Source of the DNA: an uncultured Christensenellaceae bacterium
GTDB lineage: Bacteria > Bacillota > Clostridia > Christensenellales > UBA3700
Direction of reading: 5' to 3'
Length of the DNA stretch: 64,000 nucleotides
NCBI GenBank assembly: GCA_944376205.1
Contig: CALWBV010000006.1
Span: 7,868 to 71,867 of the forward strand
How positions within the stretch are numbered: the first letter of the stretch is position 1; every line of letters starts with the position of its first letter. Of the stretch, positions 3,169 through 58,277 are shown piece by piece. Below the pieces are notes generated by a model. That model was not told where the DNA came from. It did no database searches and saw only the letters and a program-made list of their open reading frames with translations. Made by a program: the position numbers and the translations under genes.

Positions 3169-3984
3169 TTATCGCACTTCGATGTCAAGCGCCTCTTTGT
3201 AAACTTCATCCCTCGTAAGCGAGTTGGCTTTGGCAACCTGTTTGACGGCGCTCTTTTTATCCATACCGTTTTCAATAAGACTAATGAGCTGTTCCTTTAT
3301 GCTGCCGCAAGGCTTTTGCCGTATTTTTTCGCCGCACTCGACTATAAGCACGTATTCGCCTTTTGCTTCGCCCTCAAACCCCGCCGCCAACGTGGTGACG
3401 ATATGTTGTTCGTGAATCTTTGTAAGTTCTCTTATAATGTGCAGTTTTCTGTCGCCGAGACGTGAATACAGATAAGCGATATCCTTGTCGACGTCATAAG
3501 GAGAACTGTAAAAAACCAAAGAAGTCGTTATGTCCTTAAAGGGCAAAACAAGCGAATCTTTATCCTTGGTTTTTGACGGCAAAAAACCTATGAAAGTAAA
3601 CACGGGTTGTATTATGCCGCTCAATGCCATTGCCGTAGTCAGCGCAGTGGGTCCGGGGATAACGGTTATGTCAACTCCCTTCTCCGACAGTCCGTTGACC
3701 ACTACCGCCCCCGGATCGGAAACGGCAGGCATACCTGCGTCTGTTACAAGTGCAACGTCCTTACCCTCGCAAAGCATTGCGTATATTTTGTCTACGCTCT
3801 CCTTTTCGTTGAATTTATGGCAGGCAAACAAAGGTTTTTTTATATCGTAATAGTTGAGAAGTTTGAGCGAATGACGGGTATCTTCGCAAGCTATCGCATC
3901 CGCTTGTCGCAAAGTATCCAAAGCTCTTTGACTTATATCTCCGAGATTTCCTATAGGCGTACCTACAAGATAAAGTTTTGCCAT
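3169..3984 (-). CDS. rsmI: 16S rRNA (cytidine1402-2'-O)-methyltransferase RsmI
   Basis: KLYLVGTPIGNLGDISQRALDTL...IACEDTRHSLKLL...LVTDAGMPAVSDPG is the RsmI/tetrapyrrole-methylase-fold signature. Start chosen at the second ATG (3984), 7 nt after GGAGAG. Confidence 0.9.
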   Translation of the reverse strand: MAKLYLVGTPIGNLGDISQRALDTLRQADAIACEDTRHSLKLLNYYDIKKPLFACHKFNEKESVDKIYAMLCEGKDVALVTDAGMPAVSDPGAVVVNGLSEKGVDITVIPGPTALTTAMALSGIIQPVFTFIGFLPSKTKDKDSLVLPFKDITTSLVFYSSPYDVDKDIAYLYSRLGDRKLHIIRELTKIHEQHIVTTLAAGFEGEAKGEYVLIVECGEKIRQKPCGSIKEQLISLIENGMDKKSAVKQVAKANSLTRDEVYKEALDIEVR

Positions 3985-6068: not shown

Positions 6069-6116
6069 AAAAAAACCACTCTCACGTCAATACGGAGAGT
6101 GGTCGTTTTTCTTTTT
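6069..6116 (-). terminator. Terminator-like hairpin ACCACTCTC-N11-GAGAGTGGT flanked by an A-run and a T-run
   Basis: AAAAAACCACTCTCACGTCAATACGGAGAGTGGTCGTTTTTCTTTTT. This is the first convincing terminator downstream of the 832-aa gene, about 400 nt past its stop. The same hairpin type occurs at 47162-47204 and 47333-47370. Confidence 0.55.
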
Positions 6117-6118
6117 AT

Positions 6119-6515
6119 TACCCACTGCTTGCGAACACACAATGGTTTATACTTTTTTTTCGTGTGCCCCTATACAATGGTGCTTATTTATGCTAACGCA
6201 GTGTATATTACTTTTTTTCGTGCGCCCTTGGAGAAGGGTGCAGAGTTTGCTTTTTCGAGGTCGCCCGCAAAGGCGCGTACTAGATGTACGTAACTGCCGC
6301 GGGCGCACCGCTGATAAAAGCTAAATATGTGCCATTATACAAGGGCGCCTATTTATGCGAACGCAGTGTGTATTACTTTTTTTTCGTGCGCCCTTGGAGA
6401 AGGGTGCAGAGTTTGCTTTTTCGAGGTCGCCCGCAAAGGAGCGTACTAGATGTACGTAACTGCTGCGGGCGCACCGCTGATAAAAGCTAAATATGTGCCC
6501 TTATACAAGGGCGCC
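6119..6515 (+). repeat. Tandem array of the intergenic repeat family (166-bp period: two full units, one internally deleted unit and a head fragment)
   Basis: Full units are 6217-6349 and 6383-6515. They differ at 3 positions by my alignment. Each has the head TTCGTGCGCCCTTGGAGAAGGGTG and the tail GTGCCCTTATACAAGGGCGCC. The array ends 3 nt from the stop codon at 6519-6521. Confidence 0.9.
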
Positions 6516-6518
6516 TAT

Positions 6519-9017
6519 TTATCTTTTGCGCCAGATACGATATACCTCACCGCCAGCCAACGCAATCATCTTGACAGCATTGGGAGTAATCTCGTCAACA
6601 TATACTTTGAGTTTTTTGTTGACAACCTGACCGTCTTCGATAATGAGGTAGTTTGCATTCTGTACGCCGATACCGCCTTCTCTTATGGAATCGATGGTAA
6701 CAATGTCTCCGTCGTCAAACTGTCCTACGATATCGTCGAGAGAAACAGTGGTCTTGATAAATCTCATGAACTTGTTCTCTTCGGTATATACGTCAGCAAG
6801 CTGTTCTGCAAGTTCGTCGGGAAGCTGCTCTGCCTGTTCGAGAGTTATGGAATCTCTGACAAGATAGCCGTAACCTTTTCTTTCTGCAAGAGTCATTCCT
6901 TCGGGAGAGAGTTCCTCTGTAAAGTCTTTCTCTTTATATCTGGGCTTTTTCTCGAGGGCACAAGCTTCTGCAGTCTTTGCGATGAGTTCTTTTGCCTTCT
7001 TTACTGCGAGTTTGGATCTTACAGGCATGAGCGTAGGAATTTCGACAACACCTCTCTTTTCGCTCATATCCTTGTGGTGATAGTACTTCTCATCGAGAGA
7101 TGCGGGATCGAGTGCAAGGTAGAGTTTGAGAGTCTTGCCGTTGATGACTATTCTCGCCTTGGTCTCACGACTGTGATTGAAGTTTTCCTTGGTCTTGCTG
7201 ATTCTGTTTCTGAATCCGTAAGAAAGGAGTTCGTTTTTGAGTTCTGAATAGAATTTCTTGAGGTCGTCGCTTGCAAGTCTCAATTTCGTCATAAAGGTGA
7301 ATCTGGGTCTTACACTCTTGATTGCACTGATATCCTCTTCTTCCTCGTCTTCCTCATCGTCATCCTCGTCGTCTTCTTCTTTTTGCTGATTCATAAGAGC
7401 TACGATGTTGGTCTCGATATTTGCAAGTCTTTCGTTGATTTCGTCGTCGTTTCTGTTGTCCTCTACGGGCACGTAAACTGTCTGAACGATAGGCTGTTGT
7501 TGTACGGGTTCCTCAACGGGTTCGTCGACAGGTTCCTCAACAGGTTCTTCTACAGGCTCCTCGACAGGCTCGACAACTTCTTCGACTGGTTCTTCCACAG
7601 GCTCGTCAACAGGCTCCTCTATCACTTCTGCTACAGGTTCCTCAACGGGCTCTTCGACGGGTTCCTCTACAGGCTCCTCAATAGGTTCGTCAACAGGTTC
7701 CTCGATAGGCTCTTCGATATGAACTTCTTCTTGAGGTTCTTCGATTTCCTGTTGTTCCTCGGCTGCGAAAACGGGCTTGGATATAACTACGTGCGCTCTC
7801 GTATCTCTCTTGTAGATAGACATCTTGAGCGTGTACTGACAGAGTATCAACCACAATACGCCTATGATTCCGCACGCTATGGCGATATACATATACATGT
7901 AAATTTTGCCGGTAAAATAGTACAACAGCGTGCCTATCGCACCGATTATGAATATGTAAGGCATACAGTCAACAAGGTTTGCTCTGCCTCTTACGAGTCT
8001 TATGAACAAAGATACTACCATCATTACGATTGCGGCAGCCGCAAAAACGAACGTTACGACTACTTCGAGATCGGTTGCGATAAATTCGAAATTCTCAAGC
8101 ATAGGAGATTGCGTAATGATGAATATTATCATGATACCTACGAGTGCAAGCATTACGATAAATGCAGCGTACTTGGTAAATACTACCTTGAAGTACATAA
8201 GAAGCTTGTTGCTGGCACTGTAAACCGCATCGTTTGCCTTCTCTTGTATTCTTACTTTGAATATGGCAATTCTTATCGTCATGAGCACGAGCATTATTCC
8301 CGTAAGCGCAAGCGTCATGATAGCAAGTTCGTTGATAGGCGAGAAGTGTTTGAGAATGACGCATTGCAAAATCATTCCGAAACATACCAACAGTCCTATC
8401 AGCAAGAATGCGTCAAGCGAACAAACTTTCTGACTGCGCATCGTGATAAACGCCCATACGACAAGTGCCGCGCCCATTATCGATACGAGAACGATCATAG
8501 GCACTTTGTGTTCCTGGAAGAAAGAAATACCTGCGCCGTCTGCGATGTCTGCCGCAAAGAATACTACGTAAAGCAAACATGTAATAGGCAAAAACGTGAT
8601 AGGATTGTAGAATTTGAGCAACGAACCGAAGTAAAACGCAACTTTGTTACGCTTTTTCTTCTTGCTGTCGTCTTCCTCTTCTTCTTTTACCTCGTGGCTG
8701 TCGTAAGTCTCATAACGGAGTTCACCGCCGGGACCGTAAGGAAGCTCGTTTTCTTCTTCCTTTTCGGGTTCGTCGATAAAGCCTACGACGGCTTTTTTCT
8801 TCTTACCCTTTTTGCCCTTTGCCTCGGCAAAAGTATCGACGCTCTTTTTCTTCTTTTTGGACTTGTCCTTTTTACCTTCGGCCTGTACTCTGACAATAGT
8901 AGTCTGTTCGGGTTGAGGTTGTGCAACCTCCTCCTTAACTTCGGCTACATTCTCGGGTACTGCCGCAGTATCTAAAGTCTGGTCTGTGTTTTCTGCTTTT
9001 TTCTTGGCTTTTTTCAT
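6519..9017 (-). CDS. Large hypothetical membrane protein: Lys-rich N-terminus, about 8-10 TM helices, (P-V/I-E-E)n acidic repeat, globular C-terminal domain
   Basis: 832-aa ORF. Contains EEPVEEPVEEPVEEPV repeats and the acidic run EEDDEDDDEEDEEEED. The C-terminal roughly 70 aa (VSLDDIVGQFDDGDIVT...KKLKVYVDEITPNAVKMIALAGGEVYRI) resemble the C-terminal module of ribosomal protein uL15. Confidence 0.75.
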   Translation of the reverse strand: MKKAKKKAENTDQTLDTAAVPENVAEVKEEVAQPQPEQTTIVRVQAEGKKDKSKKKKKSVDTFAEAKGKKGKKKKAVVGFIDEPEKEEENELPYGPGGELRYETYDSHEVKEEEEDDSKKKKRNKVAFYFGSLLKFYNPITFLPITCLLYVVFFAADIADGAGISFFQEHKVPMIVLVSIMGAALVVWAFITMRSQKVCSLDAFLLIGLLVCFGMILQCVILKHFSPINELAIMTLALTGIMLVLMTIRIAIFKVRIQEKANDAVYSASNKLLMYFKVVFTKYAAFIVMLALVGIMIIFIITQSPMLENFEFIATDLEVVVTFVFAAAAIVMMVVSLFIRLVRGRANLVDCMPYIFIIGAIGTLLYYFTGKIYMYMYIAIACGIIGVLWLILCQYTLKMSIYKRDTRAHVVISKPVFAAEEQQEIEEPQEEVHIEEPIEEPVDEPIEEPVEEPVEEPVEEPVAEVIEEPVDEPVEEPVEEVVEPVEEPVEEPVEEPVDEPVEEPVQQQPIVQTVYVPVEDNRNDDEINERLANIETNIVALMNQQKEEDDEDDDEEDEEEEDISAIKSVRPRFTFMTKLRLASDDLKKFYSELKNELLSYGFRNRISKTKENFNHSRETKARIVINGKTLKLYLALDPASLDEKYYHHKDMSEKRGVVEIPTLMPVRSKLAVKKAKELIAKTAEACALEKKPRYKEKDFTEELSPEGMTLAERKGYGYLVRDSITLEQAEQLPDELAEQLADVYTEENKFMRFIKTTVSLDDIVGQFDDGDIVTIDSIREGGIGVQNANYLIIEDGQVVNKKLKVYVDEITPNAVKMIALAGGEVYRIWRKR
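7506..7717 (-). repeat. In-frame 12-nt-period coding repeat (PVEE/PIEE units)
   Basis: The plus strand shows repeated GGTTCCTCNACNGG / GGCTCCTCNACAGG units, which translate on the minus strand as EEPVEEPVDEPIEEP. Confidence 0.85.
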
Positions 9018-24016: not shown

Positions 24017-25366
24017 ATGTACTCAAGCAACGAAATTATAGAAACTATAAATATGATATCCCAACAGCACCTCGACGTACGTACGATTACGCTCGGGATA
24101 TCCCTTTTGGACTGTATTACGGACAGTAAAAAACGTACTGCCGATAAGATCTACGATAAGATCATGTCCAAAGCCAAAAATCTCGTCAAAATCGGCAACG
24201 ACATCTCTAGCGAAATAGGCGTGCCTATCGTCAACAAACGTATATCAGTTACGCCCGTAAGCCTCGTCGCAGCCGCCAGCAAAGGACATCTCGAAATTAT
24301 CCGTACTCTCGACAAGATAGCCGACGAAACGGGTATAGACTTTTTGGGCGGCTACTCCGCTCTCGTACATAAGGCAATGACGCCCTATGAAAAAGAATTT
24401 ATACTCTCCATTCCCGAAGCGCTTTCGACGACGGGTAAAATCTGTTCGTCCGTCAACGTCGCAACTTCAAAAGCAGGCATAAATATGGACGCCGTCGCTC
24501 TCATGGGTAAAATCGTCAAGGACTGCGCTTACCGCACAAAAGACAACGATTCCCTCGCTTGCGCAAAACTCGTCGTATTCGCAAACGCCGTAGAGGATAA
24601 CCCCTTCATGGCAGGCGCTTTCCTCGGTACGGGTGAAGACGATACCGTCGTCAACGTAGGCGTATCCGGTCCCGGCGTGGTAAAAACAGCTCTCGAAAAA
24701 GTCGACGGAGACCTCACTGAAGTCGCAGAATGCATCAAACAGACAGCATTCAAAATCACCCGTGTAGGTCAGCTCGTCGCAAAAGAGGCAAGCAAACGTC
24801 TTAATGCAAGTTTCGGTATTGTCGACCTCTCCCTTGCTCCCACTCCCGTAGTAGGCGACAGCGTGGCTCACATACTCGAAGAAATAGGTCTCGAAAGCGT
24901 TGGCGCTTGCGGTACTACCGCTTGTCTCGCCATGCTCAACGACGCCGTCAAAAAAGGCGGTATCATGGCTTGTAGCAGCGTAGGCGGATTGTCTGGCGCA
25001 TTTATACCCGTATCGGAAGACGCAGGCATGATAAGAGCTGCCGAAACAGGTGCGCTCAATATCGAAAAACTCGAAGCCATGACTGCCGTATGCTCGGTCG
25101 GTCTGGATATGATAGCTATACCGGGAGATACTCCCGCAGAAGTTATCTCGGGAATTATTGCAGACGAAATCGCTATCGGCGTGGTAAATACCAAGACGAC
25201 TGCCGTAAGAGTTATTCCCGTATACGGCAAGAAAGCGGGCGAATATGCAGAATTCGGCGGACTTTTGGGACGTGCTCCTATCATGAACGTAAATACCAAT
25301 TCTCCTCTGAAATTCATATCGAGAGGCGGAAGGATTCCGGCGCCTTTGCACAGCAACAAAAACTAA
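24017..25366 (+). CDS. UPF0210 / DUF711 (PFL4669-type) protein
   Basis: 449 aa. The N-terminus [27 protein letters not shown] is typical of UPF0210. Confidence 0.85.
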
Positions 25367-25369
25367 ATA

Positions 25370-25613
25370 TGCGAACGCATATAGCGGCGCATATTTGCGA
25401 TTTTGCGCAAGCAGTTGCGCTCGGTTACGTACGCCTAGTACGCTCCGCTCGCGAACTCTCTTCAAAACCGCAACTCTACACCACTCTCCGCGCTCGCACG
25501 AAGTGGGTAATATAATGACGCTTGCGCACTTACGTATATACAATATGCGCCTTTACGGGCGACCTTGAAAAAGCCAACTCTACATCCTTCTCCAAGGTCG
25601 CACGAAGTGGGTA
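25370..25613 (-). repeat. Intergenic repeat family, two units read tail-to-head on the plus strand
   Basis: ...GTTACGTACGCCTAGTACGCTCCGCTCGCGAACTCTCTTCAAAACCGCAACTCTACACCACTCTCCGCGCTCGCACGAAGTGGGT, then ...GGGCGACCTTGAAAAAGCCAACTCTACATCCTTCTCCAAGGTCGCACGAAGTGGGT. It begins right after the UPF0210 stop. Confidence 0.85.
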
Positions 25614-25700
25614 AAAAATTCAAAAGCCCTATTGCAAATCAATGTATGCAGCTGCATTATTGACAAGCGAGGTGCACGACTTATACACGAAGCAACTTTT

Positions 25701-25739
25701 AATTTATACAATTTAAGCCTTAAGTAAATTGTATAAATT
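25701..25739. repeat. 39-nt AT-rich perfect hairpin (copy 1 of 3)
   Basis: AATTTATACAATTTA-AGCCTTAAG-TAAATTGTATAAATT. 15-bp arms and a 9-nt loop. Confidence 0.9.
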
Positions 25740-25761
25740 ATTTTATATAAGAAATATATAT

Positions 25762-26114
25762 AGGAAGCCAAGCCATTGGAGAGTGCTGTGATTTTGTGAA
25801 TTTTCAGCGGTTGTCCCAATCATAAGCGTAACTAATACGTGCTTGTATACAAACAATAGAAAGTAACTCTAAATCTAAAAAGGAAGAGCCGTCGGAGATT
25901 GGTGCGATTTTTGCTTTTCTAAGACCGAGTGCGACAGGAGCGTACTTGTCAGAAAAGACACACTAATATAAAAATATAAAGGAAGTAAAGCCCTTGGAGA
26001 TTGGTGCAGAGTTGCGGTTTTGAAGAGAGTTCACGAGGGAGCGTACTTCTAGTACGTGACCGAGCGTAACTACTCGCACAAAACCGCAAATATGTGCCGA
26101 TATACAAGGGCGCA
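25762..26114 (+). repeat. Intergenic repeat family, three units (two degenerate) read head-to-tail on the plus strand
   Basis: The heads are CCATTGGAGAGTGCTGTG, CGTCGGAGATTGGTGCG and CCCTTGGAGATTGGTGCAGAG. The last unit ends ...AAATATGTGCCGATATACAAGGGCGC, 8 nt before the rlmB ATG. Confidence 0.75.
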
Positions 26115-26121
26115 CAAGAAT

Positions 26122-26847
26122 ATGAAAATAGAAGGAAGAAACCCCCTAACCGAAGCCCTCGATTCTGACATCAAAATATCGAGGATCTACGTATCGAAGA
26201 CTGCACACGATTTGCAGCCTTTGATTGACAAGGCAAAAAACAAAAAGATCCGCATAGACTTTGTGGACAGAGCTTTCCTGGACAAAATGAGCGAAAGCAA
26301 ACGCCATCAAGGAATTATCGCTGTGAGCGAAGAATACAGCTACGCAACTATTGAAGACATTCAGCAAGTCGCAAAACAAAAGGGCGAAAAACTCTTTGTG
26401 CTTATTCTCGATTCTATCGAAGACCCTCACAATCTCGGCAGTATCATAAGAGTAGCTGAATGCGCAGGCGCACACGGTATTATCATACCTTCACGCAGAA
26501 GCGCAAGCGTAAACGCTACCGTTTTGCGCACCTCGGCAGGCGCAGCTAACCATATAAAAGTCGCTATGGTCGGCAATATCAACGACGCTATCCGACAGCT
26601 CAAGGACGACTTCGTCAATGTCTATTGCGCCGATATGCAAGGCACTACCCTGTACGACTGCCGTTTTGACGAAGACGTGGCAATCGTCATAGGCAACGAG
26701 GGCGACGGCGTAAAAGCACTTACCGCCAAACTCTGCAATCACGTGGTATCTATACCCCAATTCGGCAAAGTAAATTCACTCAATGCGTCGGTGGCTTGCG
26801 GGATTATTTGTTATGAAGTCATCCGTCAAAGGCGCAACCTTGTATAA
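26122..26847 (+). CDS. rlmB: 23S rRNA (guanosine-2'-O)-methyltransferase RlmB (SpoU/TrmH family)
   Basis: MKIEGRNPLTEAL..., DPHNLGSIIR, IGNEGDGV and SLNASVACGIICYE motifs. The upstream extension of the ORF to 26056 lies in repeat sequence and is rejected. Confidence 0.9.
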   Translation: MKIEGRNPLTEALDSDIKISRIYVSKTAHDLQPLIDKAKNKKIRIDFVDRAFLDKMSESKRHQGIIAVSEEYSYATIEDIQQVAKQKGEKLFVLILDSIEDPHNLGSIIRVAECAGAHGIIIPSRRSASVNATVLRTSAGAANHIKVAMVGNINDAIRQLKDDFVNVYCADMQGTTLYDCRFDEDVAIVIGNEGDGVKALTAKLCNHVVSIPQFGKVNSLNASVACGIICYEVIRQRRNLV

Positions 26848-27180
26848 GGGCGTGCCTTTGACTTTTTCTGCGACACTTCTGCTTAGTCACGTACGGCTAG
26901 TACGCTCCTTTCGCAGTCGGTCTGGAAAAAATAAAAATCACACTCTTCTCCAAGGTCGCATGAAGTAAACGATATAGCTGTGCGCTTTTGCGTGTGACCT
27001 AGAAAAAGAAAAATCACCCCGCTCTCTGTACTTGCGAAATACTTATAAAAAATTAGGTCGCATAAAGCAAACGATATAGCTGTGTGCTTTTGTGTGTGAC
27101 CTAGAAAAAGAAAAAATCACACCACTCTCCGCACTTGCAAGAAGTACAAAACGCACACTCTTCTCCACGGTCGTATAGTT
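26831..27180 (-). repeat. Intergenic repeat family, one full and about three partial units
   Basis: GGCGCAACCTTGTATAAGGGCGTGCC...AGTCACGTACGGCTAGTACGCTCCTTTCGCAGTCGGTCTGGAAAAAATAAAAATCACACTCTTCTCCAAGGTCGCATGAAGT, followed by partial units. The terminal palindrome contains the rlmB stop codon (26845-26847). Confidence 0.85.
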
Positions 27181-29893: not shown

Positions 29894-30559
29894 TTAAGCC
29901 TCCCCTTCTTCTTTTGCAGAAGATTCTTTTTGTGCCTCGCCCTCTTCGAGTTGGGAAAGGTTTTGCTGATTTTTCTTGCTGTATTTCTTCTTATAAACAA
30001 ATCTCATAAGTCTTGCTTCGAAGCCGTTGATGATCTTGTTTTCGCCTATAACGCTGCTTGCTACGAAACATCTGCTTGCCTTGTCAAGTACCAATACGCA
30101 AGTGTATGCTTCGTCAAGCGTACGACCCGACGTAATGCATCCGCTGTTTTTGACGAGGCAGGAATTTCTGCCTTTCAAAGTCTTGAGTATGCTGTGAACG
30201 TCGTCGTCTGCCGTCTTGCAGGAAGGTCCCACGATCTGTGCCATATCGTCGAGAACCGCAGGAATGGTAGCGCCTGCTTTTGCGACAGGCATAACCCACT
30301 TGGGATAGCACTGGCATATAGCGTGAATATCTGCTCTCTCTTTATAGATTTCTGCGTGATAGAGATATTCCTTGTCAACTTTGAATATAAGAAGTTTGAT
30401 GACGTCTTCTTCTTTGAGATCAGCGAGTTTAACTCCCGCTTTGGTGACATACATATAATTGAGTCCCGATCTCATGCTTATCATATCTTTGTCGCCGACT
30501 ACGCCTTCCGCAACAAGTTTCTGTGCGTATTGCAAAATGGTTTCCACGATTTTTTCCAT
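29894..30559 (-). CDS. Class II aldolase-like paralogue with altered metal ligands
   Basis: It has the same fold signature (MISMRSG...YVTKAG...). The HxH position reads ICQCYP and the NHG position reads KNSGC. The start overlaps the kinase stop by 1 nt. The stop lies 2 nt before the next aldolase start. Confidence 0.7.
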   Translation of the reverse strand: MEKIVETILQYAQKLVAEGVVGDKDMISMRSGLNYMYVTKAGVKLADLKEEDVIKLLIFKVDKEYLYHAEIYKERADIHAICQCYPKWVMPVAKAGATIPAVLDDMAQIVGPSCKTADDDVHSILKTLKGRNSCLVKNSGCITSGRTLDEAYTCVLVLDKASRCFVASSVIGENKIINGFEARLMRFVYKKKYSKKNQQNLSQLEEGEAQKESSAKEEGEA

Positions 30560-32094
30560 TATTCTTCTCCTCCTTCAAATCTCTTCGAGTTAGCGTGTCT
30601 GTATGTCTTTTCAAGGCTGTAATAGATTTGCTTGTAGCTCTTGAACAGTTCATCGTAAATATATTTGTTCTGGGGATTGGGACGGTATGTCTTGCTCTCC
30701 TGAACAAAGTTTTTAGCATCGGCAAAACTGTTGAGCTCGCCGAGACCGATAAGCGCAATTATAGCTGCGCCGAGTGCGCCTGCGTTTCGGGGATTTTCGA
30801 CTATTGCAAACTCACTTCCCGTTATGTCGGCAATTATCTGCATCCATGCGTTGTCAAGTGCGCCGCCGCCGATAATTCTGAATTGTCTGCAATGGAATTT
30901 GTAATCCTTTCTGAAATTTTCGAGAATCCAACGCAAGTTGTATCCTATACCTTCGTAAAGCGCACGCATGATGTGTTCTCTGGTGTGAGAAGGAGTAACG
31001 TTCCAAAGCGTAGCTCTCGTCGTCGTCGAGGATACCGGACATCTCTCACCCAACATCCAAGGCGTACAAATCAGGTGATCCGAGCCTGCGGGAATGGACT
31101 CGATAACCTTGTCCATATATGCGTAAATACCGTCTCCGAGTTCTTTCTGCTCGCTGGAGAAGAACTGGTCGCACAGCCACTGAATATTGCTGCCCGCCGC
31201 CTCGGTAATACCTACTATAAGATTCATATCGGGATCCGCAGATTGTATTGCCGCTGCACCGTGCTTGAATTTCGTCTTGTTTCTGCTGGAAGCCGCAACC
31301 CATGCCGAAGTACCGAGGTAAATATGTATTTCGCCGTCGCCGTTCATGCCGCTGCCGATTGCCGCTGCCTGCGTATCGTCACAACCGCCGAATACCGCCG
31401 TGCCTTCGCACAAGCCCATTTTCTTTGCCGCTTCTTCGGTAAGTCCGTTGCCTATTTTGTCGGTACTCTTGACAAGAGGAGGAAGTTTTGACATGTCGAT
31501 GCCGATAAGTTTCAAAGCGCTGAGCCATGTCTTCTTCTTAAGGTCGAGACCGTAACTCGACGCACCCGAAAGTTCGGCTACCATTTCGCCCGTACATTTA
31601 TACTTGAGATAACCGTTTACGTCGAGGAAATACTTGGTGTTGTTGTAAACGTCGGGACGCTCTTCTTTGAGCCACTGAATTTTTGCTACGACGTCCTTAC
31701 CCATGATAGGTGTACCCGCAACAAGAGTAAATATCTTTTTGCCGCCGACTTTGTTCATAAGTGTCTGCGCCTGCCTTTCTGCTCTTCCGTCCACCCATGT
31801 TATATTGGGATGTAAAACTCTGCCTTTGGCATCCACGGGAATAATACCCATAGCCTGCGTAGAGAATACGACGCCCTCTACGTCATGAGGGTCAATGCCC
31901 GTATCCTCAATCAAAGTACGAGATGCGAGACAAACAGCTTCCCAGTACTCGTCGGGGTCTTGCTCGACGAAAGCGGGAGCGGGATAATAGGTGGGATAGG
32001 GTACGGCTTTAGATGCAACGATTTTGCCTTCGAAGTCGATAAGTACAGCCTTATCCGAACTGGTACCCATGTCGTGGGCTACAACGTATTTCAT
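30559..32094 (-). CDS. FGGY-family carbohydrate kinase (xylulokinase-like)
   Basis: MKYVVAHDMGTSSDKAVLIDFEGKIV...FVEQDPDEYWEAVC. The C-terminal block is RIIGGGALDNAWMQIIADI. Confidence 0.88.
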   Translation of the reverse strand: MKYVVAHDMGTSSDKAVLIDFEGKIVASKAVPYPTYYPAPAFVEQDPDEYWEAVCLASRTLIEDTGIDPHDVEGVVFSTQAMGIIPVDAKGRVLHPNITWVDGRAERQAQTLMNKVGGKKIFTLVAGTPIMGKDVVAKIQWLKEERPDVYNNTKYFLDVNGYLKYKCTGEMVAELSGASSYGLDLKKKTWLSALKLIGIDMSKLPPLVKSTDKIGNGLTEEAAKKMGLCEGTAVFGGCDDTQAAAIGSGMNGDGEIHIYLGTSAWVAASSRNKTKFKHGAAAIQSADPDMNLIVGITEAAGSNIQWLCDQFFSSEQKELGDGIYAYMDKVIESIPAGSDHLICTPWMLGERCPVSSTTTRATLWNVTPSHTREHIMRALYEGIGYNLRWILENFRKDYKFHCRQFRIIGGGALDNAWMQIIADITGSEFAIVENPRNAGALGAAIIALIGLGELNSFADAKNFVQESKTYRPNPQNKYIYDELFKSYKQIYYSLEKTYRHANSKRFEGGEE

Positions 32095-32106: not shown

Positions 32107-32243
32107 AAGTCGCCGTTGTATATCAGCGTATCTTTTCCTTTTGTCTGCGACGCTCGCCCTCAGTCACGTACGATAAGTACGCTCCTTTCGCGCTCGGTCT
32201 TGAAAAAGAAAAATCTGCACTAATCTCCAACGGCTCCACATTT
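32107..32243 (-). repeat. Intergenic repeat family, one unit abutting the RBS of the FGGY kinase gene
   Basis: AGTCGCCGTTGTATATCAGCG...CTCAGTCACGTACGATAAGTACGCTCCTTTCGCGCTCGGTCTTGAAAAAGAAAAATCTGCACTAATCTCCAACGGCTCC. Confidence 0.8.
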
Positions 32244-32394
32244 CTGTGTGAGTATTAAATTTTTCAATTTTTTGAAGTCCGTAATTATATCGGCTTCGGG
32301 TTTATGTGTTTTTCGTTTTATCAATTACGATATCCGCATCAAAGGGATTATCTCATATCAGAAAGATAGAATCTCCGTCATGATTTTGAGGAGC

Positions 32395-32433
32395 AATTTA
32401 TACAATTTAAGTCTTGGATAAATTGTATAAATT
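32395..32433. repeat. 39-nt AT-rich perfect hairpin (copy 2 of 3)
   Basis: AATTTATACAATTTA-AGTCTTGGA-TAAATTGTATAAATT. Confidence 0.9.
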
Positions 32434-42093: not shown

Positions 42094-44355
42094 TCAACTT
42101 ACAATACCTGCCGTCTCCGCACCGCCGCCGGTATCCTGTCCTGACGATGGTTGTTTTTCCTCTCCGCCCAGCGCTCCTACTATGGCATTACGTATAGGCA
42201 ATATTTTATCTTCGCCTATCATGTCGGCAAGCATATCGCATGCTTTATCCACGCCGTATATCAGAACTTCGTTGATAGTTTGCGCTCCGACTTCCGCCTT
42301 TGCCTGTTGGGCAAGGAAATAATATCCAACTCCGAGTGCCGCAACTAAAATTATTGTAAGTATCAACCACATAACGACAATACTTCTTATAAGCGCTGTC
42401 CTTGACTTGTTGCCCACGCCGAAAAACCAGCATATGCACGCAAATAAGTTAATAAGCGGTATTGCAAGAACTATAATAGTGCCTATCCATTTGCCTACCG
42501 TCATCGGATAGTTGCGCAAATCCATTTCGTCAAAACGCGACGCTTTTTTTGCTATCTTGCGCTGTTTTCTCGTCATGTTTTCTTTTTCAGGCAACGTAAC
42601 GACTACCGTCTGTCTGTCGCTGCTGACAAATCTAGGGACAAAAGGCTGCTCGGAATTATCATTCGACGCTTGTGTTTTGTCCTGCGAAGCGTTGACCGCC
42701 GTCTGTGCTACCGCACCGCCGTAAACGGCATTCACAAAGTCTCCGCCGAGCATATCCGTCTCCTCGGGAATAGCTTTGCGCTCCTCTTTGTATTCTGTCA
42801 TATCGACAAAACCGTCTGCTTCGTTTGTCTCTGCGTTTTTCGACTTTTTGTTCTTTTTGTCGAGTTTTGCCTGTTCTTTATCGGCAAGCGCCTGCTTTTT
42901 CTTATCGAGTTTGTCTTGCTTTGCCTGCTCTTTTTGATTCTGCTTTTCAAACTTGGCTTGCGCCTTATCCTGCTTGGCTTGCTCTTTGGCATTAAGCTTA
43001 TCTTGCTTTGCCTGTTCCTTGGCTTGCTTGTCTGCCGCCTTCTTTTCTTCTGCTTCTTTTATCTTTTGCTGCTTTAAGTCGGCAAGCTCTTGTTTTTGTC
43101 TCTCTTTCTCGTCAAGCTGCGCTTGTTTGTCGGCAAGTTTTTGTTGTTTTTCCTGCTCTTTGGCATTCAACTTGTCTTGCTTTGCCTGTTCTTTTTGATT
43201 GAGCTTGTCTTGTTTTGCTTGCTCTTTAAGCTGTCTCTCCTGTTCTTTTTTGAGCAAAGCGTCGTGTTTTTGCTGTCTTTTGATCTCGTCTTTTGTCAAA
43301 GGTATCTGTTGAGGCGCTTCGTTTGCGTTGAAATCGTATTCGTTTCCGCCCTGCAATTGTCCGTATTGGGGCACGCCGTAATTATCCTGTGCGCCTGAAT
43401 AAGCGTAATTCTGCGCACCGTAGTTGTCGTATGCGTTAGCGCCTGCATAGCCGTCCGAAGCTTGGGTATAACGGGGTCTCGCTTCCTGCTCGGGTTGAGC
43501 GTATCCGCCGTATTGTGCAGGCTGGCTGTATTGAGGTCTCGCTTCCTGCTTGGGTTGAGCGTATCCGCCGAATTGCGCAGGCTGGCTGTATTGAGGTCTC
43601 ACTTCCTGCTTGGGTTGAGCGTATCCGCCGAATTGCGCAGACTGACTGTATTGAGGTCTTGCCTCCTGCTCGGGTTGAGCGTATCCGCCGTATTGTGCAG
43701 GCTGACTGTATTGAGGTCTTGCCTCCTGCTCGGGTTGAGCGTATCCGCCGTATTGTGCAGGCTGACTGTATTGAGATGCGATATTCTGTTGTGTTTGATT
43801 GGGTTGAGTATAGGGAGACTGCACAGACTGTCTGTCTCCGTTAAAAGGTCTGTCTCCCGATAAAGCCTTATTGTCGGGTTGAGAATTTGTTCTGTCGGCT
43901 ACCGGCTTATTGAAAGCATAATTGCCCGTTTGTGCAGGACGAGGTTTCTGCTCCTTCTGATGAGCAGATTTTGCAAACCCGAACGAACTCGTTCCGAGAT
44001 ACTTCTTCTCGTTTGACGAGGCAGGTTTTTCTGTAGACTGATGCTTGGGAAATTTTTGTTTGGACGGAATAGGATTGTTGTGACTTGCGGGTTGCTGCTC
44101 GTTGAGTCCCGAAAGCGCATTGGCAAAACTGTTGCCGAAATTGTTAGAATACGTATTATCCACATATGCGGGAGCGTAGTCGTCCTCTCTTTCTTCCTTT
44201 TGCGGTATGCCGTACTCATCCGCAGCCCATACCGATTTAGGAGTAGACGACTGCCATTGAGATGCGTTATCCTGCTGTGCAGATTTATCCGCTTTACCGT
44301 CAAAGCCGCCCTGATATGCCTTATAATCCTTGTCGTTGTCGTTGTTGTTGAACAT
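42094..44355 (-). CDS. Large hypothetical protein: Gln/Pro/Tyr-rich 20-aa repeats, Lys/Gln/Glu coiled-coil-like repeats, C-terminal TM domain
   Basis: Start at the ATG 5 nt after GAGGGG (MFNNNDND). It has five RPQYSQPAQ(Y/F)GGYAQP(E/K)QE(A/V) units. A long (A/E)KQDKLN(A/Q)KEQ run follows. At least three TM helices lie near the C-terminus. Confidence 0.75.
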   Translation of the reverse strand: MFNNNDNDKDYKAYQGGFDGKADKSAQQDNASQWQSSTPKSVWAADEYGIPQKEEREDDYAPAYVDNTYSNNFGNSFANALSGLNEQQPASHNNPIPSKQKFPKHQSTEKPASSNEKKYLGTSSFGFAKSAHQKEQKPRPAQTGNYAFNKPVADRTNSQPDNKALSGDRPFNGDRQSVQSPYTQPNQTQQNIASQYSQPAQYGGYAQPEQEARPQYSQPAQYGGYAQPEQEARPQYSQSAQFGGYAQPKQEVRPQYSQPAQFGGYAQPKQEARPQYSQPAQYGGYAQPEQEARPRYTQASDGYAGANAYDNYGAQNYAYSGAQDNYGVPQYGQLQGGNEYDFNANEAPQQIPLTKDEIKRQQKHDALLKKEQERQLKEQAKQDKLNQKEQAKQDKLNAKEQEKQQKLADKQAQLDEKERQKQELADLKQQKIKEAEEKKAADKQAKEQAKQDKLNAKEQAKQDKAQAKFEKQNQKEQAKQDKLDKKKQALADKEQAKLDKKNKKSKNAETNEADGFVDMTEYKEERKAIPEETDMLGGDFVNAVYGGAVAQTAVNASQDKTQASNDNSEQPFVPRFVSSDRQTVVVTLPEKENMTRKQRKIAKKASRFDEMDLRNYPMTVGKWIGTIIVLAIPLINLFACICWFFGVGNKSRTALIRSIVVMWLILTIILVAALGVGYYFLAQQAKAEVGAQTINEVLIYGVDKACDMLADMIGEDKILPIRNAIVGALGGEEKQPSSGQDTGGGAETAGIVS
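43473..43775 (-). repeat. Five tandem 60-bp near-identical coding repeats
   Basis: Plus-strand unit: GTATTGAGGTCTCGCTTCCTGCTYGGGTTGAGCGTATCCGCCGWATTGYGCAGGCTGRCT, repeated 5 times in phase. Confidence 0.9.
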
Positions 44356-44705
44356 CTTTCCCCTCAATTTGTCCTTAAGGACCTGTAAAATAAACTTTCA
44401 CTTTCACACACAATACGTCTTTTGTCAGGCAATTGCACTCCGTAATGCAAAATATCCGCCTAACGACGCATTATGATTTTACTACAAATATGAATATCTG
44501 TCAATTAAAGTCAATGAGAGGTTTTGAAGGATTTTTTTGCCATATATGACATTTATGCGCCTTTTCCCGAAGAAAAAAGCGCATATCGTCCATAAAAAAT
44601 TCAACATTTTCATATTTTGCGCATGCTGTAAAAACACACATGCCGCCCCGCCCGAGTTGAGCTTGCTATATTGCCGCAAAATTCTTAAGCGTAATCGTCT
44701 AAAAT

Positions 44706-46057: not shown

Positions 46058-47011
46058 ATGCCACTCGTAACATCTAAAGAAATGTTCAAAAAAGCATACG
46101 CAGGCAAATACGCTATCGGTGCTTTTAACGTAAACAATATGGAAATCATCCAAGGTATCGTCGAAGCCGCTACCGAAGAAAACGCTCCTCTTATTTTGCA
46201 AGTTTCTTCCGGCGCTCGTAAATACGCTAACCCCGTATATCTCCGTAAAATGGTTGAAGCTGCAGAAGAAGTAAGCCACTTGCCTATCTGCTTGCACCTC
46301 GACCACGGCGATACTTTCGAACTCTGCAAAAGCTGTATCGACGGCGGTTTTAACTCCGTAATGATCGACGGCAGCCACCACTCTTTCAAGGATAACATCG
46401 CTCTTACCAAGCAGGTCGTTGAATACGCTCACGATCACGGCGTTACCGTAGAAGGCGAACTCGGACGTCTCGCAGGCGTTGAGGACGACGTTAAGGTTTC
46501 CGCAGAGGACAGCTCCTATACCCGCCCCGAAGAAGTAGAAGAATTCGTTACAAAGACGGGCGTTGACTCCCTCGCTATCGCTATCGGTACTTCCCACGGC
46601 GCTTACAAGTTCAAGCCCGGTACGAAGCCCCAACTCCGTTTCGATATCCTCGAAGAAGTAAGCAAGAGACTTCCTGAATTCCCTATCGTATTGCACGGCG
46701 CTTCTTCCGTACCTCAAGAATTCGTAAAGATCATCAACGAGAACGGCGGAAAGCTTCAGGATGCTATCGGCGTACCCGAAGATATGTTGCGTAAGGCTGC
46801 AAGCATGGCAGTATGTAAGATCAACATCGACTCCGACCTCAGAATGGCTTGCACCGCAGGTATCCGTAAGCACTTTATGGAGCATCCCGATCACTTCGAT
46901 CCCAGACAATACCTCGGCGACGCTAGAGCTAACATCAAGTATATCGTAAAGCATAAGCTCGTAAACGTACTCGGTTGTGCTGGTAAGGCTGACGAGATTC
47001 TCGGTAAATAA
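46058..47011 (+). CDS. fba: Class II fructose-1,6-bisphosphate aldolase
   Basis: YAIGAFNVNNMEIIQGIVEAA, LHLDHG and AIAIGTSHGAYKF motifs. Confidence 0.95.
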   Translation: MPLVTSKEMFKKAYAGKYAIGAFNVNNMEIIQGIVEAATEENAPLILQVSSGARKYANPVYLRKMVEAAEEVSHLPICLHLDHGDTFELCKSCIDGGFNSVMIDGSHHSFKDNIALTKQVVEYAHDHGVTVEGELGRLAGVEDDVKVSAEDSSYTRPEEVEEFVTKTGVDSLAIAIGTSHGAYKFKPGTKPQLRFDILEEVSKRLPEFPIVLHGASSVPQEFVKIINENGGKLQDAIGVPEDMLRKAASMAVCKINIDSDLRMACTAGIRKHFMEHPDHFDPRQYLGDARANIKYIVKHKLVNVLGCAGKADEILGK

Positions 47012-47161
47012 TAGGCGACCTTGTATAAGGGCGCACCTTTTCCTTTTATCTTCGACGCTCCTACTCAGTCACGTACGGCAAGTACGCTCCTATCGTAGTC
47101 GGTCTTGAAAAAGAAAAATTCACACTCTTCTCCAAGGTCGCACGAAATGGGGCAATAAAAG

Positions 47162-47204
47162 AAAAAACGACCACTCTCTGCAATAGCACGAGAGTGGTTT
47201 TTTC
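47162..47204 (+). terminator. Hairpin terminator GACCACTCTC-N11-GAGAGTGGT plus T-run
   Basis: AAAAAACGACCACTCTCTGCAATAGCACGAGAGTGGTTTTTTC. This is the likely fba terminator, lying after the first repeat unit. Confidence 0.7.
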
Positions 47205-47332
47205 ACCTTTCTTTATGCAAGAGTTGCCTCTCTCGGTTAAATAAGATATTATGCGCCTTTGCGGGTGACCTCGAAAAAGAAAAAACTGCACTAATCTCTG
47301 CGGTTGCACAGAGTTTGCAATAACCAAAAACT

Positions 47333-47370
47333 AAAACCACTCTCCTTACTAATGTGAGAGTGGTTTTTTT
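47333..47370 (+). terminator. Second hairpin terminator of the same type
   Basis: AAAACCACTCTCCTTACTAATGTGAGAGTGGTTTTTTT. Confidence 0.65.
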
Positions 47371-47583
47371 ATAGAATAATATTTAATTATTGTAGATAAT
47401 AAAATACAAGTCAGTTTTACTATGCCGTCAATATCCGTTTTCTTCCTTATTCTACTTATCATCGACATAGTCTATCTATGCCTTGAGCGCAAGTATCTTA
47501 AAAAAGTAAACGCAGAAAATGTAATTAGCGAAAAAGAAAATCTCAAAACTGACTGACTATATTATTATACTTAAATATTAAAA

Positions 47584-47622
47584 CAATTTATACAATTTAA
47601 GTCTTGGGTAAATTGTATAAAT
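47584..47622. repeat. 39-nt AT-rich perfect hairpin (copy 3 of 3)
   Basis: AATTTATACAATTTA-AGTCTTGGG-TAAATTGTATAAATT. Confidence 0.9.
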
Positions 47623-47748
47623 TAGCTTTTCCCCTTACGCACGTATGTACATGCAAAAAGCCGCTTAAAATGCGGCTGATAAATTTCATATATTTTTATA
47701 TTACGCCCTCTGTATAATTCTCATAAAGGACAATCTTTTTATTATATT

Positions 47749-48233
47749 ACCGACTCCGTGCGACCTTGGAGAAGAGTGTGAATTTTTCTTTTTCAAGACC
47801 GACTACGACAGGATAGCATATAATACAATATCCGCTTGGAAAAAAGTACCGACAAACGGTTTTATTCGCTTGTTGAATATATACCGTTTCGTTTGGTCGG
47901 TATGGACAAACCCGACATTTTGTCTTACGCTTTCGACACCTCGGAAGCGTAGGTATTTTGTCGTGGTGAGCGAACCGTGACCGAGCGTAACTGCTTAAAA
48001 AAATTCGCAAAGGCGCACCACCATATTACCCACTTCGTGCGACCTTGGAGAAGGGTGTGATTTTGCAAATTATAGAAATTTATCAATTTAATATTACTCA
48101 CTCCTTGCAAGTGCGGAGAGTGGTGCAGAGTTTGTCTTTTCAAGACCGAGTGCGACAGGCGCATACTTTGCGTATGTAACTGAGCGCGAGCGTCGCAGAC
48201 AAAGGCAAAATATGCGCCGCTATACGCACTTGC
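47749..48233 (+). repeat. Intergenic repeat family, about three units read head-to-tail, ending at the stop codon of the 245-aa gene
   Basis: CCGTGCGACCTTGGAGAAGAGTGTGAATTTTTCTTTTTCAAGACCGACTACGACAGG..., then CACTTCGTGCGACCTTGGAGAAGGGTGTG..., then CTCCTTGCAAGTGCGGAGAGTGGTGCAGAGTTTGTCTTTTCAAGACCGAGTGCGACAGGCGCATACTTTGCGTATGTAACTGAGCG... Confidence 0.85.
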
Positions 48234-48971
48234 CTATTTGAAGAAGTCAACAATCTTCTGTTTAATAACCTGCAACTTCCCTTCTATAAACTGTTTGATT
48301 TCACTCTTCTTGGTCTTTTTGAATTCGTCACGCAGTTTGTCGATAAGTTCCTTTTGAATGACCCGATTATTAGCAAATATCTGCTCGGTATTGCCCTTAA
48401 TTTCTATATAGCTTTCTGCGACAAGTTCGCAATAGGCGAGGATGCCCTGCTGAATTTCCGCATCGTACATGCCTTTTTCGAGACTAGCAAAAGCGCACAG
48501 AAGTTCGACGATATTGTCGCTTACCTTGTCATAGAAGTTCTTGCCCGAAATATACTCGGCAATCGCCATATATGCGGCGGTGTCACGGGTGTATTCCTTG
48601 CAAAAGTCTCTGATACATTCCTCAACTTTGGCAAACATGTCTTCGTCGAGCGAAAATACGTTGTCCCAAGTGATTTTCTCAACAACCGTTGCGCCTGAAG
48701 AATAGAGTTTTTTGTTGACAAGTTCGAGAATGTCGGCTTCGCCTGCGACTCCGCTTAAAAACTGGATTTCTTTGGGATAAAGATTGTGATTGGCTTTGCT
48801 CTGGAAAAAGAGTATGGCCTGCAATATCCTGTCAAACATGCGTATGCGATTCTGCGTACTCAAATTGGGATCGACGTTGCGTGCGATATCGCATATCTCG
48901 ACGAGATACTTTGTGATCGCAGAATAGCGCTTATAAAGTTTGAGCCAGATTTTTTCTTTAGCTACTGCCAT
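48234..48971 (-). CDS. Hypothetical all-alpha protein
   Basis: 245-aa ORF with coding-like composition and a GGAG RBS (GGAGGAGTTATG on the minus strand). No family recognised. Confidence 0.6.
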   Translation of the reverse strand: MAVAKEKIWLKLYKRYSAITKYLVEICDIARNVDPNLSTQNRIRMFDRILQAILFFQSKANHNLYPKEIQFLSGVAGEADILELVNKKLYSSGATVVEKITWDNVFSLDEDMFAKVEECIRDFCKEYTRDTAAYMAIAEYISGKNFYDKVSDNIVELLCAFASLEKGMYDAEIQQGILAYCELVAESYIEIKGNTEQIFANNRVIQKELIDKLRDEFKKTKKSEIKQFIEGKLQVIKQKIVDFFK

Positions 48972-57696: not shown

Positions 57697-57787
57697 ATTT
57701 TATATAAACTGCCACAAGAAATATCAATGGCTGTTTTTCCCTTACCTTTCCTCGCAGAGAATAAATATGCCCCGCAATAATACATAC

Positions 57788-58277
57788 TTCTTGCAAGCAC
57801 AGAATAGTTGCAGAATAGCGACTTTGAAGAGAGTTCGTGAGCGGAGCTTACTAGACAAAATCGCAAATATGCACCGCTACATTAACAACTTCGTGCGACC
57901 TTGGAGAAGGGGGCGATTTTTTCTTTTTCAAGACCGACTACGACAGGAGCGTACTTGCCGTACGTGACTGAGTAGGAGCGTCGAAGATAAAAGGAAAAGG
58001 CGTGCCACTAAATTACCAACTTTGTGCAAGCACGGAGAGTGGTGTGATTTTGCGAATTTTAAGAGAGTTCGCGAGCGGAGCATACTTTGCGTATGTAACT
58101 GAGCGCAAGCGTCGCAGATAAAGGCAAAAGATGTACTTACCCACTTCGTGCGACCTTGGAGAAAGGTGTAGAGTTGGCTTTTTCAAGGTCGCCCGTAAAG
58201 GAGCGTACTAGACGTACGTGACTGCAGCGGGCGTACCGCTGACAAAAGTCAAATATGCGCCCTTATACAAGGTCGCC
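57788..58277 (+). repeat. Intergenic repeat family, four tandem units alternating two head subtypes and ending at the gdh stop codon
   Basis: The heads are TTCTTGCAAGCACAGAATAGTTG (subtype 2), AACTTCGTGCGACCTTGGAGAAGGGGG (subtype 1), AACTTTGTGCAAGCACGGAGAGTGGTG (subtype 2) and CACTTCGTGCGACCTTGGAGAAAGGTG (subtype 1). The last unit ends ...AAATATGCGCCCTTATACAAGGTCGCC at 58277. Confidence 0.9.

Follow-up and report, generated by a model that had tools for sequence, protein, structure and literature searches.

Opposed repeat arrays between two convergent genes

The 64-kb stretch analysed here, hereafter the window, comes from a Christensenellaceae contig (CALWBV010000006.1). One of its intergenic regions, at 47012-48233, holds opposed arrays of a non-coding repeat (the unit) that probably belongs with ERIC, the enterobacterial repetitive intergenic consensus, also known as the intergenic repeat unit (IRU) or RU-1. 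The region lies between fba (46058..47011, plus strand; Pfam F_bP_aldolase) and a 245-aa open reading frame (ORF; 48234..48971, minus strand) for which a Pfam search gave no match. A preliminary description of this DNA had called the region gene-free and built of repeat arrays facing each other. We find no credible gene within it, and both nhmmer and covariance-model searches place the left units on the minus strand and the right units on the plus strand. Throughout, sense refers to the well-folding strand of each unit, which carries the motif GGAGC.

Units were scored with nhmmer and with R2, a model built from 47 multi-phylum sequences that include neither ERIC nor units of the window. The left array begins next to fba with a full unit, L1 (47015..47154, minus strand; R2 109.4 bits over model positions 1-134, the profile match spanning 47020-47154). 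Its hairpin occupies 47015-47141 and is closed by a basal helix of GCGACCTTG and CAAGGTCGC; the 13-nt 5' tail follows at 47142-47154, 37 of 39 pairs are formed, and the 3' end adjoins the fba stop. The second left unit, L2 (47202..47320, minus strand; nhmmer 43.8-57 bits), is truncated and keeps its 5' end, at about model positions 1-106. Across the AT-rich centre, the right array opens with a unit 5' half (47744..47797, plus strand; nhmmer 54.8 bits, positions 2-63, with a partial R2 match) that is broken at the hairpin tip, ending in ...CGACAGGA. It continues with a 3' half-unit of another subfamily (GTGACCGAGCGTAACTGC...GGCGCACCACC; 47973..48022, plus strand), read from the sequence and from a weak nhmmer match at positions 77-121, and with a truncated unit (48026..48068, plus strand; nhmmer 27.6 bits, positions 1-40) that is 92% complementary to 47116-47151. 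The array closes with a full unit, R3 of the locus (48094..48233, plus strand; R2 109.3 bits and sequence), in which GCAAGTGCG at 48107-48115 pairs with CGCACTTGC at 48225-48233 as the basal helix and the tip is a compensated variant, GCAUAC...GUAUGU. The inverted match of about 60 nt between the arrays, noticed earlier, runs between 47088-47151 and 47750-47813 (64 nt, 94% complementary).

Copies elsewhere in the window

The window carries about 20 full or partial copies of the unit in six intergenic loci (6209-6509, 25376-26108, 26839-27145, 32115-32249, 47012-48233 and 57786-58271), in agreement with the earlier suggestion of a dispersed repeat family. Chance is excluded as an explanation because ten full copies score 86-110 bits under a model built from other organisms only. 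Two tandem full units lie at 6209..6509 (plus strand; R2 98.6 and 108 bits) and adjoin the stop codon, 6519-6521, of a gene at 6519..9017 on the minus strand. The locus at 25376..26108, identified from nhmmer and R2 matches and from the sequence, repeats the head-to-head layout: minus-strand units at 25376-25510 and 25512-25614 adjoin the stop of a plus-strand gene (24017..25366), and an ATG at 26123 follows closely on plus-strand units at 25880-25965 and 25975-26108. A minus-strand array occupies 26839..27145 (R2 105.9 bits and sequence). The single unit at 32115..32249 (minus strand; R2 108.1 bits) has the sense orientation and is directly upstream of the ribosome-binding site of an FGGY kinase gene (30559..32094, minus strand).

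The copy at 57882..58016 (plus strand; R2 86-91 bits) is one of four tandem plus-strand units at 57786-58271. Its basal helix has no 3' arm, and 31 of the 39 pairs are formed. The reported near-identity between this copy and L1 is upheld by BLAST, which aligns 47030-47146 with 57885-58015 in inverted orientation at 94% identity over 117 nt (E 5e-48), and the match does consist of two blocks that are identical on both sides of one mismatch.

An ORF that ends at 26847, presumably SpoU/TrmH-like to judge from its sequence, runs 17 nt into the first unit of the 26839-27145 array and stops at the unit's TAA. Its last five codons and its stop (…AGG CGC AAC CTT GTA TAA; 26830-26847) are supplied by the repeat, an example of a repeat providing a protein C-terminus.

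Units usually abut stop codons with one polarity

The sense 3' end of a terminal unit adjoins the neighbouring gene, usually at a stop codon on the opposite strand. At 47012-48233 the left hairpin end, 47015, directly follows the TAA TAG of fba, and the right unit, ending at 48233, directly precedes the stop codon of the 245-aa gene (CTA, that is TAG, at 48234-48236). The same abutment is seen at 6509/6519, 25376/25366 and 58271/58278. Read on the unit strand, the fba stop and the TAG after it (47009..47014, plus strand) form the unit 3' tail CTATTA, and the AAATAG or TAAATAG junction recurs at 6516-6521, at 48234-48239 and in another contig (L096); TAAATAG and GTATAAG supply the stop codons at the units' gene-proximal edge. 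In a tally read from the window sequence, six gene-proximal units adjoin or overlap stops and are antisense to the gene, and two sense units (32115-32249 and 25975-26108) adjoin a start. With the usual placement, the mRNA of the abutted gene would thus carry the complement of the well-folding strand.

The preference extends to the wider family described below. Counting ORFs of at least 80 codons and taking orientation relative to the GGAGC strand, a stop codon lies 55-72 nt from the tip centre, at the hairpin base, in 53 antisense cases versus 5 sense cases (p 3e-11). All three stop codons are used, and some ORFs extend 8-20 nt into the element.

Since fba and the 245-aa gene converge, the rule that a unit's 3' end sits at a stop yields head-to-head arrays at 47012-48233. 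Convergence and the polarity rule alone explain the impression of heads facing a core. The feature is real, and nothing more unusual than ERIC-like repeats piled up at the ends of two convergent genes accounts for its geometry.

A single hairpin maintained on one strand

Each unit consists of a 13-nt 5' tail (TTACCCACTTCGT) and a single imperfect hairpin of about 125 nt (123-127 nt). RNAalifold applied to 11 window copies gave 39 pairs, 19 of them with compensatory changes. Among 36 distinct copies from the same species group, 95% of cells were paired, versus 78% after shuffling and 29-53% with the partner slid, and changes on both sides were found in 26/39 pairs. Many G-U pairs on the sense strand become C-A mismatches on the complement, and the window units score 90-110 bits in sense versus 15-29 bits in antisense. 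The tip, GGAGC-GUAC-loop-GUAC-GUGAC with tandem G.A/A.G between G-C and G.U pairs, is the most conserved part of the unit and the base the least; internal loops are also conserved, and GGAGA, some U-runs and the tip form invariant islands among the 36 copies.

No Rfam family matched the window at gathering thresholds, the locus at E up to 10, or the elements in 18 loci of other phyla, and the window contains no tRNAs. CRISPR, retrons, TnpB omega-RNA, group II intron domain V and sso were set aside from the sequence alone, their defining features being absent. A K-turn was likewise dropped, as there is no 3-nt bulge and the tandem GA does not interrupt the helix.

The preliminary description drew attention to a 9-nt patch said to differ almost completely between L1 and its distant copy, to lie in the loop of a CGGTCTTG/CAAGGTCG stem, and to be possibly hypervariable. 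These details do not hold. The two segments, TTCACACTC and ATCGCCCCC, differ at 4/9 positions, and in the covariation-supported fold the segment is the 5' arm of helix 2. The proposed stem is not the conserved fold: CAAGGTCGC pairs instead with GCGACCTTG (47015-47023) as the basal helix, in which 4/4 pairs covary. The 3'-arm bases that pair with this segment differ between the compared copies as well (alignment columns 129, 131, 135 and 136), with partial compensation. By per-column entropy over the 36 distinct copies, the 9-nt block does not stand out as the most variable stretch; all helices and the 5' tail carry variation, which on this evidence is distributed essentially evenly over the unit. 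The accompanying remark that simple decay does not predict such a patch was sound, in that differences between copies are of a subfamily or mosaic kind and are kept compatible with pairing. A subfamily or mosaic difference is the best reading of the patch. One unit at a different locus has an identical basal helix and identical flanks in all strains, and its whole interior differs between strains.

Turnover of units among strains

Ten metagenome contigs encode an identical fba protein in the same gene order, with an intergenic region of 809-1627 nt. Among the eight distinct versions of this region, minus-strand units always lie on the left and plus-strand units on the right, while the number of units and the subfamily members next to the genes differ. 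Strain indels are bounded by repeats, either other units or terminator-like hairpins of the form CCACTCTC-N11-GAGAGTGG, which points to unequal recombination between repeats as their origin. At the FGGY-kinase locus, a unit directly follows an aminotransferase stop in eight other strains and is absent from the window strain.

These haplotypes bear on the idea that the locus is a one-off inverted duplication, a cruciform or an invertible switch. Long imperfect inverted arms are present (124 nt at 72% and 64 nt at 94%), as such an origin would have it. They lie 598-981 nt apart and are composed of units of different subfamilies, and the long arms, at 72% complementarity and 981 nt apart, do not make the single long foldback that had been envisaged. 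An inversion or excision switch fares no better: the eight strain haplotypes are collinear in the centre with constant polarity, and no strain has an inverted centre. The unit also occurs at five other loci of the window and in other genomes, and the layout recurs at 25376-26108. We therefore reject this explanation, which the other copies and the strain haplotypes contradict and which we rate as extremely improbable.

Copy number and unit identity shift quickly between strains, through unequal recombination at units and terminator-like hairpins and through block replacement of interiors. Mosaic copies such as the 47036-47145 / 57885-58005 pair are the outcome. In practice, such arrays concentrate length differences between strains and invite errors of assembly and annotation, among them spurious ORFs and ORFs that have been extended into a repeat.

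A family that crosses phyla

Full-length relatives of the window unit were found in Christensenellaceae metagenome-assembled genomes (MAGs). To look further afield we used a tip pattern, GGAGCGTACTNNNNGTACGTRAC, which has 21 specified bases and for which about 0.5 chance matches are expected in 596 Gb. Among the matches listed, it occurs at more than 118 genome loci in many phyla. By record titles, the hosts include Christensenellales, other Clostridia, Rikenellaceae, Bacteroidales, Muribaculaceae, Prevotellaceae and Selenomonadales; Deltaproteobacteria, Desulfobacterales, Sandaracinaceae, Nannocystaceae, Sulfurovum and another Epsilonproteobacterium; and Woeseiaceae, Moraxellaceae, Opitutales and Citrobacter. 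The family thus spans Clostridia, Bacteroidota, Delta- and Epsilonproteobacteria, Myxococcota, Verrucomicrobiota and Gammaproteobacteria, at least six phyla. The tip was absent from 2.9 million viral contigs, and a literature search for its sequence returned only irrelevant matches.

Sequence around the tip differs among these loci and architecture is common to them. Hairpin length peaks at 120-129 nt (50/122), and the GC content of the element follows that of the host, from 0.36 to 0.71. A model made from 11 window units alone recovers full-length elements in Bacteroidales (66 bits), Muribaculaceae (62), Sulfurovum (55), Alistipes (53) and Deltaproteobacteria (46). In the 47 multi-phylum sequences, 87.9% of cells are paired versus 56.7% after shuffling, and 543 cells are changed on both sides versus 178; these counts are biased towards structure, the alignment having been fitted to the model. 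A multi-phylum alignment made with MAFFT only gave a consensus fold for the tip alone and was replaced by model-guided alignments. The strand preference is again pronounced, the GGAGC strand being more stable than its complement by 13.3 kcal/mol in 119/120 elements of the wider family.

An rRNA operon of a Woeseiaceae MAG (L040) contains a family member at 3400-3495, between spacer tRNAs that end at 3130 and a 23S rRNA that starts at 3539.

Strand asymmetry of this kind fits a single-stranded DNA intermediate as well as RNA, and the units might accordingly be read as single-strand hairpin sites for a dedicated recombinase or HUH transposase, comparable to attC sites or to repetitive extragenic palindromes (REPs) and their RAYT transposases, with stop placement reflecting mechanism. 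The resemblance to attC is close in several respects: similar-sized imperfect palindromes that begin at the stop of the upstream ORF, structure conserved over sequence, and a functional fold on the strand complementary to the coding strand. Vibrio cholerae repeats, for example, measure 123-126 nt. The units nevertheless invert the attC pattern, in which the tip is variable and the base conserved, and a conserved tip over a variable base is equally the reverse of MITE (miniature inverted-repeat transposable element) inverted repeats and of REP. Copies read by eye, with no formal search, show no attC core sites (RYYYAAC / GTTRRRY; R''/R') at unit ends, and neither an integrase nor cassette arrays accompany them; the flanking genes are housekeeping genes. 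When 749 ORFs from 118 loci were clustered, no linked non-housekeeping gene emerged. Recurrent neighbours were an ABC ATPase, EF-G, a pyridoxal-phosphate (PLP) enzyme, a histidine kinase and DnaX, and among the recurrent neighbour families scanned there was no transposase, recombinase or RAYT-like gene. Orientation also flips inside one intergenic region and is thus independent of replication direction. Taken together, we consider dedicated recombination sites improbable.

Other palindromic repeats offer partial parallels. Like REPs, bacterial interspersed mosaic elements (BIMEs) and REPINs, the units are intergenic palindromes downstream of genes, often in clusters of alternating or opposed orientation; in those elements the mobilised form is presumably a single-strand hairpin. 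REPs, however, are 20-40 nt long with a GTAG or CGTC head (PMC3733652), whereas each unit is one 125-nt hairpin, and REPINs conserve their ends and not a tip. Correia/NEMIS, RUP, BOX, bcr1 and RPE elements are, like the units, non-coding stem-loop repeats of 100-200 nt; they are co-transcribed with neighbouring genes, can extend over the end of an ORF and differ from strain to strain (PMC2229807, PMC3184786). Each of those families is limited to one genus or family and is recognised by its terminal inverted repeats, whereas the present one spans phyla and is defined by its apical hairpin.

Relationship to ERIC

ERIC/IRU repeats have been used in strain typing for 35 years. They are MITE-like, and we know of no transposase for them. 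The ERIC core, which we take to be that of the standard ERIC-PCR (polymerase chain reaction) primers, occurs as an exact 44-mer in 5424/5426 E. coli genomes. Its sequence, CCAGGAGCTTAC-N4-GTAAGTGACTGG, compares with (A/C)AGGAGCGTAC-N5-GTACGTGAC(T/C)G in the window units, with one compensated pair: CUUAC/GUAAG in ERIC corresponds to CGUAC/GUACG in the window family, and both share AGGAGC-xUAC-loop-GUAx-GUGAC(U/C)G. One tip-pattern match (L115) is a Citrobacter ERIC with the CGTAC form of the tip. The E. coli ERIC between ybhJ and ybhI is a palindrome of about 127 nt with the geometry of the window units, its GGAGC-strand 3' end lying 3 nt from the convergent ybhI stop.

Models built on either side find members of the other. 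With R2, the ERIC of Citrobacter scores 38.4 bits (E 1e-7) and that of E. coli 22.7 bits (E 1e-3), each at full length, on the right strand and at the expected position. R3, a model of 34 aligned enterobacterial ERICs collected from metagenomes, gives 41.1 bits (E 4e-8) to a Bacteroidales element (L024), 28.7 bits to a Firmicutes element (L045) and 28.4 bits (E 1e-4) to the window unit at 25997-26103. A further eight units of the window reach 14-18 bits with R3, all on the correct strand and in the correct position; individually these matches are marginal, and collectively they are far beyond chance.

According to published descriptions, ERIC is MITE-like, 127 bp long, bounded by terminal inverted repeats and associated with a duplicated TA; it is co-transcribed with its neighbours and has, in Yersinia, an orientation-dependent effect on mRNA stability through a ribosome-exposed RNase E site (PMC2229807, PMC3184786, PMC10969869, PMC2267715). 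The window family has in common with it an imperfect palindrome of about 125-127 nt that forms one long hairpin, intergenic and multi-copy placement, and similar internal-loop motifs, 5' ..AAGGCG.. and 3' ..CAACGCA... The GGAGC strand folds better by about 12-13 kcal/mol in both (by 12.2 kcal/mol in 107/107 ERICs), and stop-adjacent copies of both prefer to be antisense to the gene, ERIC more weakly and in the same direction as the wider family (17 antisense versus 8). The 5' tail of the window units, TA-TTACCC, resembles the ERIC end TA-TACCC. De Gregorio et al. in 2005 reportedly found that Yersinia ERICs adjoining or overlapping stop codons do so preferentially in one orientation.

The two also differ. 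Arms of the window units share almost no sequence with ERIC arms, the window host belongs to the Christensenellales (Bacillota), and the units occur in tandem arrays with truncated copies. Their density in the window is about 1 per 3 kb, compared with about 1 per 150-200 kb in E. coli K-12 (estimated from copy numbers in PMC10969869). ERIC has been reported from Enterobacteriaceae and Vibrionaceae (PMC10969869), recent reviews confine it to these families, and Zo 2011 places it within Gammaproteobacteria; in the limited literature that we searched we found no report of relatives outside Gammaproteobacteria. Given a host range outside Enterobacteriaceae and Vibrionaceae, we file the window units as ERIC-like members of a wider superfamily and not as ERIC proper.

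On this comparison we consider it likely that the locus is an accumulation of a dispersed non-coding imperfect-palindrome repeat of about 125 nt from the same structural family as ERIC/IRU. Several observations weigh against this assignment or soften it. The wider-family loci were retrieved through the tip pattern, so that conservation of the tip is partly by construction, and much of the signal shared by ERIC and the window units falls within the 23-nt tip. R3 scores on most window units are marginal (E 0.08-0.6), and the orientation bias in the ERIC sample is not significant by itself (p 0.11). Of ERIC's outermost terminal inverted repeat (TACCC/GGGTA), the window units have the 5' TTACCC and no 3' half. 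In a comparison of an empty with a filled site (L130 versus L132) no TA duplication is visible, the strains having diverged so that the junction may be old, and no transposition event was caught cleanly among the strains compared. Finally, the flanking ORFs are the calls of this analysis.

Enterobacterial metagenome contigs (L140, L147, L155:12683-12826, L167 and L193) contain ERICs whose 5' half has been replaced by a GC-rich hairpin (GCGCTGGCCCCGTAGGGGCGAGGCC...). These chimeric ERICs parallel the mosaic units of the window.

Propagation and possible function

We infer that the units spread as mobile or copied DNA, and that propagating copies were selected for the fold of the GGAGC strand, which would imply a single-stranded intermediate of that polarity (single-stranded DNA or RNA) in propagation or function. 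Given fast turnover, and given that most mRNAs would carry the poorly folding complement, the compensatory evolution probably reflects the needs of propagating copies and not those of each resident 3' untranslated region (UTR). Stop-proximal units probably also influence, from within the 3' UTR, how stable the upstream mRNA is, an effect reported for Yersinia ERICs. By analogy such a role is plausible; it is carried over from Yersinia, which tempers it, and the relevant RNases in Clostridia may differ from those of Yersinia.

An alternative is that the units are structured small RNA (sRNA) genes, transcribed outward from the AT-rich centre in the GGAGC orientation and acting, for example, as antisense 3'-end regulators or as protein-binding RNA. 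The strong strand-specific fold, 13 kcal/mol more stable in sense, the abundant covariation and the conserved tandem-GA tip would all suit such genes, as would the terminator-like hairpins between units and a palindrome with TATAAA-like arms on the units' 5' side at both head-to-head loci and at 32398. Yet an inspection by eye of 67 elements revealed no shared upstream promoter at a fixed distance, and a promoter scan of the locus (7 sites versus 3.8 expected) was not informative. Most truncated or broken copies retain the 5' end only, strains whose flanking proteins are identical differ in copy number and unit identity, placement follows the stop codons of unrelated genes, and Rfam holds no match. 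We accordingly give sRNA genes little credence and retain an ERIC-like dispersed repeat as the preferred reading.

More speculatively, ERIC could be one branch of an ancient cross-phylum class of elements of about 125 nt, with a strand-specific single-stranded DNA or RNA intermediate, a partner protein that reads the tandem-G.A apical hairpin, and stop placement set partly by the insertion mechanism. We regard this as a tentative proposal that is rather unlikely to hold in full. If it is true, the partner of ERIC, sought since 1990, would be findable by correlating the presence of R2 and R3 matches with protein families.

In the window, which derives from a gut lineage of Clostridia, an ERIC-type element reaches a very high density, and relatives of the same size, tip, strand-specific fold and stop-codon preference occur in other phyla. 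A family-specific curiosity thereby becomes a broadly conserved structured element, and presence/absence profiling with covariance models offers a handle on what copies or binds it. The cross-phylum breadth and the single-strand signature are the interesting part, and this wider result is of moderate interest.

Accompanying repeats and other features

Three further repeat types accompany the units. Family C comprises the terminator-like hairpins CCACTCTC-N11-GAGAGTGG, represented in the locus at 47158..47210 (stem 47171-47197), an inverted repeat flanked by an A-run and a T-run, and at 47333..47367 (47337-47363), with 12-nt arms that are 100% complementary. A third copy lies at 6076-6102. The family C stem matches the GGAGAGTGGT segment of the units themselves, and strain indels of about 166 nt are bounded by family C.

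Family D is a perfect 15-bp palindrome, AATTTATACAATTTA-N9-TAAATTGTATAAATT. It occurs three times in the window, at 47585-47623 (in the AT-rich centre of the locus), 25701-25739 and 32395-32433, always in a unit-bearing intergenic region, and sits about 130-150 nt on the units' 5' side beside a GCGCAC(A/G)TAT(A/G)..GTACA..GCA motif; it is duplicated in one strain (L137). Candidate roles are those of an operator or a divergent promoter, or it may belong to a different mobile module.

Family B, which is unrelated to the unit, is a two-hairpin repeat of about 130-175 nt (TACCGACAAACGG...CCGTTTCGTTTGGTCGGTA and CTTACGCTTTCG...CGGAAGCGTAGG). Its one copy in the window, read from the sequence at 47798..47972 (plus strand), lies at the tip of the broken right-hand unit. 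Further copies are found in the FGGY-kinase intergenic region of L131, L134, L135 and L137, the last inserted at a unit tip after GGAGCGTACT. Internal insertions at specific sites in ERIC are said to have been described by Hulton in 1991 and by Wilson and Sharp in 2006, and the insertion of family B at a unit tip recalls them.

One metagenome assembly (L003) annotates as a gene a 44-aa hydrophobic ORF that lies within the locus at 47422-47556 (plus strand; MPSISVFFLILLIIDIVYLCLERKYLKK...). Several other strains have lost its start to a 28-nt deletion, which makes a conserved gene improbable.

Elsewhere in the window, a large protein upstream of an M29 peptidase (42094-44367, minus strand; about 1000-3298 in L001-L010) has no Pfam match. 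Among the strains with identical fba its length is 692, 694, 712, 714, 733, 753 or 773 aa, in steps of about 20 aa, which suggests a variable internal tandem repeat.

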